A stretch of 23,844 nucleotides of DNA, taken from IMG/VR virus record IMGVR_UViG_2531839668_000007; one strand, given 5' to 3'. Positions within the stretch are counted from its first letter, which is position 1, and each line of letters begins with the position of its first letter. The notes under the pieces were generated by a model. That model worked only from the letters and a program-made list of their open reading frames with translations. It ran no database searches and was not told the origin of the DNA. The translations under genes were made by a program, and so were the position numbers. Positions 6,632-7,304 of the stretch are shown piece by piece. This stretch comes from a virus (Duplodnaviria > Heunggongvirae > Uroviricota > Caudoviricetes).

Positions 6632-6996
6632 TCAGCGACCAATCACCACAACCTGACCACCGTCCCCTTCGTCTGCCGTGCTGATTTCCTGAGATACCAC
6701 CCGCGACCCCACGCGCATTTCACCGTACAGAACGGGCAGAACATTGCCCTGGGCAACCATGTTATCCAGTGAGGAGAAATACGTGTTTTGTTTGCCGTTA
6801 TCCGTTGTCTGTGTACGGGGAGTTCTGGCTTTCGGTGCCAGCATCTGCGCCACACCACCAAGTACCATACTGGCACCGAGAGAAAACAGGATGCCGGTCA
6901 TACCACCGGCCCCAATGGCTGCCCCCCATGCTGCAAGGGTGGCTCCGGCGGTAAAGAATGATCCGGCAATGGCGGCAGCCCCCAGGACAACCTGGA
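6632..6996 (-). pseudogene. I: 3' fragment of lambda tail assembly gene I (C-terminal ~120 codons)
   Basis: The frame reads ...FQVVLGAAAIAGSFFTAGATLAAWGAAIGAGGMTGILFSLGASMVLGGVAQMLAPKARTPRTQTTDNGKQNTYFSSLDNMVAQGNVLPVLYGEMRVGSRVVSQEISTADEGDGGQVVVIGR, matching the C-terminus of lambda gpI as recalled. Homology begins abruptly at about 6996, where terminase A homology ends. Confidence 0.75.
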
Positions 6997-7304
6997 ATAA
7001 GGGTGTTGCGCTGCTTGTGCTCTATAAAGTAGGCATAAACACCCAGCAGCATTTTGGAATAACCGACACGGGCAGACTTCACCACATTCACCTCACGGAT
7101 GTAGTCGCTGCCCATCGCATTCATGATGGCCCGCTGAAAGGGCAGTGTTTCCCAGCGCCCTTCCTGGTATGCGGATTCTTTCGGGAGATAGTAATTAGCA
7201 TCCGCCCATTCAACGGCGGTCTGTGGCTCCGGCCTGAACAGTGAGCGAAGCCCGGCGCGGACAAAATGCCGCAGCCTGTTAACCTGACTGTTCGATATAT
7301 TCAC
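6997..7304 (-). pseudogene. A: 5' fragment of lambda terminase large subunit A (first ~103 codons)
   Basis: ORF 6798..7304 starts MNISNSQVNRLRHFVRAGLRSLFRPEPQTAVEWADANYYLPKESAYQEGRWETLPF...KQRNTLI, matching lambda gpA residues 1 to about 103 as recalled, then continues out of frame through I-gene sequence (PGCPGGCRHC...). Confidence 0.8.

Follow-up and report, generated by a model that had tools for sequence, protein, structure and literature searches.

The junction of terminase gene A with tail gene I in the stretch of phage DNA analysed here (23,844 nucleotides, IMG/VR record IMGVR_UViG_2531839668_000007; the whole stretch is called the window below) is very probably a scar left when one illegitimate, microhomology-associated deletion took about 14.06 kb out of the late operon of a lambda-like prophage. 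The ancestor would have had a complete lambda-type Nu1-A-W-B-...-K-I-J module, as is retained in the prophage of Z1323HEC0423; a TAT in A (codon 102/103) would have been joined to a TAT in I (codon 102/103) with removal of everything in between, leaving two pseudogene stubs that are out of frame with each other. The two halves as such are known: both are already pseudogenes in RefSeq.

Blastn against the lambda genome (NC_001416) returns two homology blocks, both on the minus strand: window 6997-7722 corresponds to lambda 1018-293 with 98.9% identity (Nu1 and the 5' end of A) and window 5928-6999 corresponds to lambda 16148-15077 with 95.1% identity (3' part of I and 5' end of J). The two blocks share three bases, window 6997-6999, and nothing lies between the flanks at lambda 1018 and 15077. 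In the base-level alignment to lambda, the gene-sense strand of the window reads ...AAGCAGCGCAACACCCTTAT/TCCAGGTTGTCCTGGGG at the join. This is exactly the junction string proposed in the initial annotation, which had read a change from A to I homology in different frames, within a few bases near position 6996, from the letters alone; both blastn and the base-level view agree with it. Written from the breakpoint, the join is ...ACCCTTAT/TCCAGGTTG in gene sense, while lambda A continues as ...ACCCTTAT/CTGGTTGCC and lambda I reads ...GGCGTAT/TCCAGATTGTCC. Only TAT is common to both parents: it is native to both genes in lambda (1016-1018 in A and 15077-15079 in I) and the window keeps a single copy. 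A is broken within codon 103 (window 6997) and I resumes at codon 103 (window 6999 downward), out of frame, as (7304-6632+1) mod 3 = 1. Inspection of the junction sequence found no IS, att-core or other foreign sequence at the join, and by eye the breakpoints have neither convincing symmetric half-sites of a Pin/Gin-type invertase crossover site nor a match to the lambda att core. The features of the junction and of the surrounding DNA are listed in Table 1.

Table 1. Features at and around the A/I junction and other rearrangements in the window (positions are those of the window).
Feature	Position	Strand	Basis or detail
J', remnant of tail-tip gene J	4790..6571	-	GpJ domains; FORC 064 annotation
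'I, 3' 54% of tail-assembly gene I (codons 103-223 and stop), pseudogene, frame differs from A'	6632..6996	-	
Mechanical fusion ORF, 168 aa (103 aa of gpA and 65 out-of-frame codons across 'I)	6798..7304	-	Stop at 6798
A/I deletion junction, 3-bp TAT (ATA on + strand), one copy kept	6997..6999	-	Blastn overlap; base-level alignments to lambda and L024 (Z1323HEC0423)
A', 5' stub of lambda-type terminase large-subunit gene A, pseudogene	6997..7304	-	GTG start at 7304; codons 1-102 and Ile103
Nu1', terminase small subunit without 5' ~100 nt (DNA-binding N-terminus)	7279..7722	-	Lambda 293-736, 98.9%
Second deletion junction, TTCC-type overlap	7718..7724		Window against FORC 064 blocks; base-level view
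ninG/bet deletion junction, 2-bp TT overlap	13953..13954		Lambda comparison; FORC 064 marks both halves partial
ISCro1 (IS66-family, three ORFs)	18247..20945		8-bp target duplication ATGATAAA at 18239-18246 and 20946-20953
xis and int, lambda type, ending at att core GCTTTTTTATACTAA (22500-22514), beside ybhC	20946..22514	-	98.7% to lambda 29292-27724

A' has 98.9% nucleotide identity to lambda 711-1018, and 102 of 102 amino acids are identical to gpA 1-102, with Ile103 kept via ATT. It contains the N-terminal region of gpA and the start of the ATPase domain, including the Walker-A-like segment KSARVGYS, and its Pfam match to GpA_ATPase (E=1.6e-10) covers profile positions 3-58 of 247 only. 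The complete ATPase domain and the C-terminal nuclease domain (GpA_nuclease) of lambda gpA, a protein of 641 amino acids, are absent; in FORC 064, A' is annotated as 'phage terminase large subunit family protein, missing C-terminus'. To judge from its sequence, A' is a gene fragment and not a functional member of the gpA family. 'I has 95.1% nucleotide identity to lambda and 98.97% to Z1323HEC0423, and 119 of its 121 amino acids are identical to gpI 103-223. The initial annotation had taken it for the last third of the gene, which is an underestimate, as 121 of 223 codons are kept. The N-terminal half of the full 223-aa gpI is missing, and the fragment has neither a start codon in register with the gene upstream nor a Pfam match; the RefSeq label in FORC 064 is 'tail assembly protein, missing N-terminus'. 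Both stubs, including the fusion ORF that runs across them, are probably without function. Nu1' matches positions 35-164 of 164 of the Pfam domain Phage_Nu1, with the first 34 absent.

The lambda interval that is missing in the window (between 1018 and 15077) is 14,061 bp long, matching the loss of about 14 kb of lambda-equivalent DNA that had been estimated from the letters. The same picture emerges from a close, near-intact prophage, that of E. coli Z1323HEC0423 (NZ_CP148334.1): here the sequences that flank the junction, with 98.97% and 98.76% identity to those of the window, are collinear and co-oriented, a distance of 14,058 bp separates them, and each of the two sites has a native TAT. 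The junction thus has collinear and co-oriented flanks in an intact relative, a short direct repeat at both sites and one copy of this repeat left, as for a microhomology deletion. The 14,058-bp interval of Z1323HEC0423 contains the rest of A, W, B, C/Nu3, D, E, FI, FII, Z, U, V, G, T, H, M, L, K and the 5' 46% of I. This content supports the initial statement that all head and most tail genes are lost, the wording of which holds with J partly remaining, and no additional head or tail sequence is present between the two homology blocks of the window. The late operon of Z1323HEC0423 is complete and of lambda type (Nu1, A, W, B, C, D, E, FI, FII, Z, U, V, G, T, H, M, L, K, I, J, lom, stf), and it is this prophage, rather than Sp3, that probably represents the ancestor state for the A/I junction; we infer the direct ancestor from it. 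Sp3 of the O157:H7 strain DEC4E had been considered as intact comparator and was unsuitable, since its packaging module is not Nu1/A; Z1323HEC0423 was used instead.

The window is 100% identical over its full length to E. coli O157:H16 strain 98-3133, and the element is a prophage of the Sp3/CP-933K family at the lambda attachment site, ybhB/ybhC. This assignment is based on the match to 98-3133, on the ybhB/ybhC site together with the nle genes, on a backbone with 98-99% identity to the O157:H7 Sp3-type element (DEC4E) at the same site and on the assignment of NleB2 to O-island 36/CP-933K/Sp3 (PMC7142665). The integration site lies between ybhB/bioA and ybhC, with the att core beside ybhC and int/xis of lambda type. 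The cargo is also that of the family: nleB2, nleC and nleH1-1 are in the window, downstream of the tail-fibre genes, nleD is just outside, and window 1-5021 matches the nleH1-1, nleC and nleB2 region of DEC4E with 98.2% identity. A near-identical copy of the element is present in FORC 064, likewise between bioA/ybhB and ybhC, with nleD, nleH1-1, nleC and nleB2 annotated. The 100% match to O157:H16 98-3133 and the nle genes speak against the element being the defective lambdoid prophage that E. coli B carries at att-lambda, and this identification was given up. A gene for an LpxR-family lipid A deacylase is found at window ~11659-12618 (plus strand; position from the offset of the FORC 064 annotation), between remnants of a Q-like antiterminator and the lysis genes; it is moron-like cargo and is also present in the O157:H7 relative.

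The scar is present in several independent genomes: a 601-bp sequence that spans the junction was found in 6 of 5,426 complete E. coli genomes, and additionally in one IMG/VR contig and one metagenome contig. An assembly artefact was rejected for this reason. All carriers have the scar at att-lambda, and no genome was found that has it in the context of prophage DLP12 (argU/ompT).

The A side of the junction is shared with DLP12 of E. coli K-12, whose aaaD stub ends at the same base as A' of the window (lambda 1018) and is 99.7% identical over the stub. K-12 strains match the A side of the junction query down to window 6992: window 6992-7304 corresponds to 12001-12313 of K-12 MG1655 (L003), with the next five bases, TCCAG, common to both. 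The K-12 join is ...ACCCTTAT/TCCAG/CTGGCTTCG, into tfaD, and results in an in-frame A(1-103)-Tfa(51-194) fusion; 368 of the 5,426 complete genomes have this type of junction. The window is not of this aaaD'/'tfaD type: A endpoint and TATTCCAG are the same, but are followed by gene I (GTTGTCC; the scar string is ...CTTAT/TCCAGGTTGTCC, then 'I-J) and not by tfa (TATTCCAG/CTGGC). TATTCCAG is the native sequence of intact tfa alleles at the K-12 join point and likewise of gene I at lambda 15077. No literature on DLP12 aaaD was found.

A third partner of the same A base, stf, was found in scans for the A-side 20-mer followed by any base but C (a Bradyrhizobium match, L004, was discarded as a chance 20-mer, of which about one is expected in 596 Gb). 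The IMG/VR contig IMGVR_UViG_3300029181_000111 (L007), otherwise 100% identical to DLP12 of K-12, has A-1018 joined to stf at lambda 21370 with TAT, followed by full-length tfa. A is fused in-frame to the C-terminal 185 amino acids of Stf (L007 4685-5548, minus strand), and K-12 equals L007 minus 701 bp; the exact A-1018/stf junction of L007 was found in 0 of 5,426 complete genomes. The possibility that the extra 701 bp are an ectopic copy from Rac or Qin was rejected, as they are 92-97% identical to those but 99.86% identical to the DLP12 tfa of E. coli PSJ-16 (NZ_AP027632.1). PSJ-16 itself carries a further DLP12 variant, unique among the 5,426 genomes, in which a terminase stub that extends to lambda 1452 is joined to tfa 22025 (L014 3246-3989); K-12 equals this variant minus 527 bp.

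The metagenome contig OCGJ01000030.1 (L016) contains, at ~1441-1476, Rac stfR-tfaR-pinR with ~99.5% identity to K-12 in which a tract of 31 nt of tfaR is replaced by the DLP12 junction. The replacement is in-frame and length-neutral (25 nt of gene A plus TCCAG) and changes STDIAPPDI to KHKQRNTLI. The tract resembles the product of a short ectopic conversion whose left end is non-homologous and, being known from a single contig, could be an artefact. L016 was rejected as evidence that tfa natively holds sequence of gene A, in which case homology over 25 bp would account for the DLP12 junction, because the contig is Rac stfR-tfaR-pinR with a single 31-nt replacement, seen in one metagenome contig and in no complete genome.

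E. coli prophages often have comparable A'/tail-gene scars, and the endpoints of these are scattered. In Qin-type scars the endpoints are A-955, A-960 and A-979, and the Rac-type scar joins A-1539 to stf-21369, a base or two from the stf endpoint of L007. A sample of 120 IMG/VR contigs has A-side endpoints spread between 960 and beyond 3,400, and 1018 is not over-represented among them. Rac- and Qin-type prophages of other E. coli (L019-L022) have a Nu1 homologue, a short A stub, 'stf, tfa and pin; some of the Qin/Rac joins are in-frame fusions annotated as intact 'phage tail protein', among them the A'-'stf fusion of L021 (348 aa).

Common origin is one possible explanation of the endpoint shared with DLP12, to which we give tentative credence: the A/I scar would have arisen once, and the DLP12 lineage would then have undergone a second deletion between the 8-bp repeats TATTCCAG in the scar and at tfa codon ~50. 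Such a second deletion, removing 'I-J-lom-stf-tfa', leaves the A endpoint in place and would yield the K-12 junction precisely, with the window as the preserved intermediate. The reading accommodates both the identical A endpoint with its five identical next bases and the native occurrence of TATTCCAG in intact tfa as well as in gene I, and since the A endpoints of other scars spread over ~3 kb, the same endpoint plus pentamer is unlikely to have arisen independently. Moreover, the Nu1-A' block recombines readily between lambdoid phages, lambda among them, and DLP12 (PMC3945230), so the scar could move between prophages. However, common origin fits less well with the restriction of the A/I scar to att-lambda and with the longer A stub of PSJ-16, and the near-identity of the L007 stf endpoint with that of the Rac-type scar suggests a separate DLP12/Rac history; SNPs within Nu1-A' are uninformative.

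Alternatively, A-1018 could be a sequence-favoured site, with endpoints in the GC-rich late genes preferring short AT islands (TAT/ATA) and the match to DLP12 reflecting convergence, to which we give slightly less credence. One A base has three partners (I, stf and tfa), all of them with TAT in their native sequence, L019 uses ATA at A-1539 and stf-21369, one base from the stf endpoint of L007, and one J-internal junction also ends in ...TGTAT. Against this, the overlaps at other junctions are TACC, TTCC, TT or about 1 nt, 1018 is not over-represented in the IMG/VR census once the DLP12 contig L007 is set aside, the three TAT junctions could be related to one another, and no nuclease, topoisomerase or transposase site was identified. 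Shared descent and AT-island convergence each leave one coincidence, of about 1 in 1,000, unexplained. Tentatively, the A/I scar could be a surviving intermediate of the junction that all K-12 genomes have in DLP12 or, alternatively, lambda 1016-1018 could be a recurrent breakpoint, joined independently to the partners I, stf and tfa.

For the A/I junction itself, a single deletion with microhomology is the preferred reading. The 3-bp overlap is short enough to occur by chance and is thus no proof of a microhomology-dependent mechanism; the same A-side base ends two other DLP12 junctions, which is unexpected for a purely random deletion and leaves room for a sequence-directed process. At the molecular level, the join may have been made by replication slippage, by template switching or by the joining of broken ends. 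It is very improbable that the join was instead made by recombination between prophages, uniting a DLP12/lambda-like lysis-cos-Nu1-A' block with an Sp3-like I-J-tail fibre-nle block: the flanks do differ in their distance to lambda (98.9% versus 95.1%), Sp3 of O157:H7 has no Nu1/A at all and ylcI-Nu1-A' of FORC 064 is arranged as in DLP12, but Z1323HEC0423 has both blocks, ~99% identical and collinear, in one intact operon at the same locus, and therefore a simple deletion suffices. An IS3-family element (3-bp target duplication, e.g. IS629/IS1203) in the late operon, the excision of which took flanking DNA, is an equally improbable source of the deletion. IS1203 does sit inside the tape-measure gene H of the DEC4E relative, the prophage was struck by other IS (ISCro1 and an IS256 remnant) and EHEC undergoes deletions associated with IS excision. 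The join and its surroundings are, however, free of IS sequences and IS ends, and with TAT native to both parental genes in lambda and Z1323HEC0423 a target duplication is not needed. Neither of these two origins is necessary to explain the join. A possible resemblance of the A' sequence to IS186 ends is given no weight here.

The deletion between A and I is one of several in the window, and other junctions there are alike in having overlaps of 2-4 bp. J' has two internal in-frame deletions, one of 348 nt at ~5928-5938 and one of 1,419 nt at ~5874-5875, and stays open for 593 codons because both are multiples of three; it is truncated at the 3' side near 5021-5034, where it abuts a tail-fibre fragment. 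The 3' end of J' runs out of frame into this tail-fibre sequence. At the second deletion junction, 1,508 bp of FORC 064 are absent, with the 5' end of Nu1, the cos region, ylcI and a gene for a Rha-family regulator; this leaves the element without packaging site as well as without terminase. The 1,508-bp deletion was seen in the window strain only. At the ninG/bet junction, 10,359 bp of lambda-equivalent DNA are gone, equal to the whole immunity and replication regions, and this deletion is nested over an older, different ninE/bet junction of O157:H7 DEC4E. ISCro1 of the window lies in the ea/xis-proximal region; FORC 064 has the same IS elsewhere, near ybhB.

The relatives allow these events to be ordered. 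A metagenome contig (L017) has the A/I scar together with 1,290 bp more of J-lom-stf at window 5021/5022 (L017 593-1882); as these are retained in L017 and absent from the window, the A/I deletion came first. FORC 064 has the A/I scar with intact Nu1/cos, to which the window adds the 1,508-bp Nu1/cos deletion. An IMG/VR contig (L011) has the A/I scar with an extra deletion that joins window 7300 to 8201, with all of Nu1 gone (L011 10116-10123). By comparison of these sequences, L017, FORC 064 and the window form a stepwise deletion series, with L011 as a separate variant. The 14-kb loss would belong to a series of deletions with small overlaps by which the prophage became immobile, its effector cargo, lysis genes and int/xis being retained.

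The A/I junction is ordinary prophage decay in a known family of cryptic, effector-carrying prophages. It records the immobilisation of an effector prophage of atypical EPEC/EHEC, with all head and most tail genes lost and the virulence cargo staying behind. Its value is modest: it is a well-resolved example, for which an intact relative and intermediates let the order of deletions be read directly. The endpoint shared with DLP12 provides a small lead on whether nested deletions reuse old scars or breakpoints are favoured by sequence; if the scar is indeed an intermediate, or the breakpoint recurrent, the stepwise decay path of a textbook cryptic prophage could be reconstructed.

Among the closest known systems is the prophage of Z1323HEC0423, with the same att-lambda locus, the same nleD-nleH1-1-nleC-nleB2 cargo and a lambda-type late operon; unlike the element of the window, it keeps full A...I, full-length J, intact Nu1, the cos region, ylcI and the Rha-family gene. 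Sp3/CP-933K (O-island 36 of O157:H7) has in common with the window the ybhB/ybhC site, lambda-type int/xis, nleD-nleH1-1-nleC-nleB2 among tail-fibre remnants and an early/lysis backbone with 98-99% identity, and the immunity/replication region is gone in both. However, Sp3 of DEC4E keeps I, K, L, M, part of H and head genes, whereas the window element is without 14 kb of morphogenesis genes; its packaging module consists of DUF1441 and a 700-aa TerL with no Nu1/A, in contrast to the lambda-type Nu1-A' stub of the window, indicating that the late region of the Sp3/CP-933K family is mosaic; and the ninG/bet deletion of the window is larger than, and nested over, the ninE/bet deletion of DEC4E. 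DLP12 (nohD - aaaD' - 'tfaD) resembles the window in having a Nu1 homologue and an A 5' stub that ends at lambda 1018, with a TAT overlap and TCCAG next, but it has another chromosomal site and integrase and its partner is tfa (codon ~50) instead of gene I; the DLP12 join is in-frame and that of the window out of frame, and the two are found in 368 versus 6 of 5,426 genomes. Finally, Qin-/Rac-type prophages (nohA - A' - 'stf - tfa - pin) have likewise kept the Nu1 homologue with A cut near its 5' end, and have lost head and tail-shaft genes while keeping distal tail genes; they differ from the window in their A endpoints (lambda 955, 960, 979 and 1539) and in having stf as the partner.
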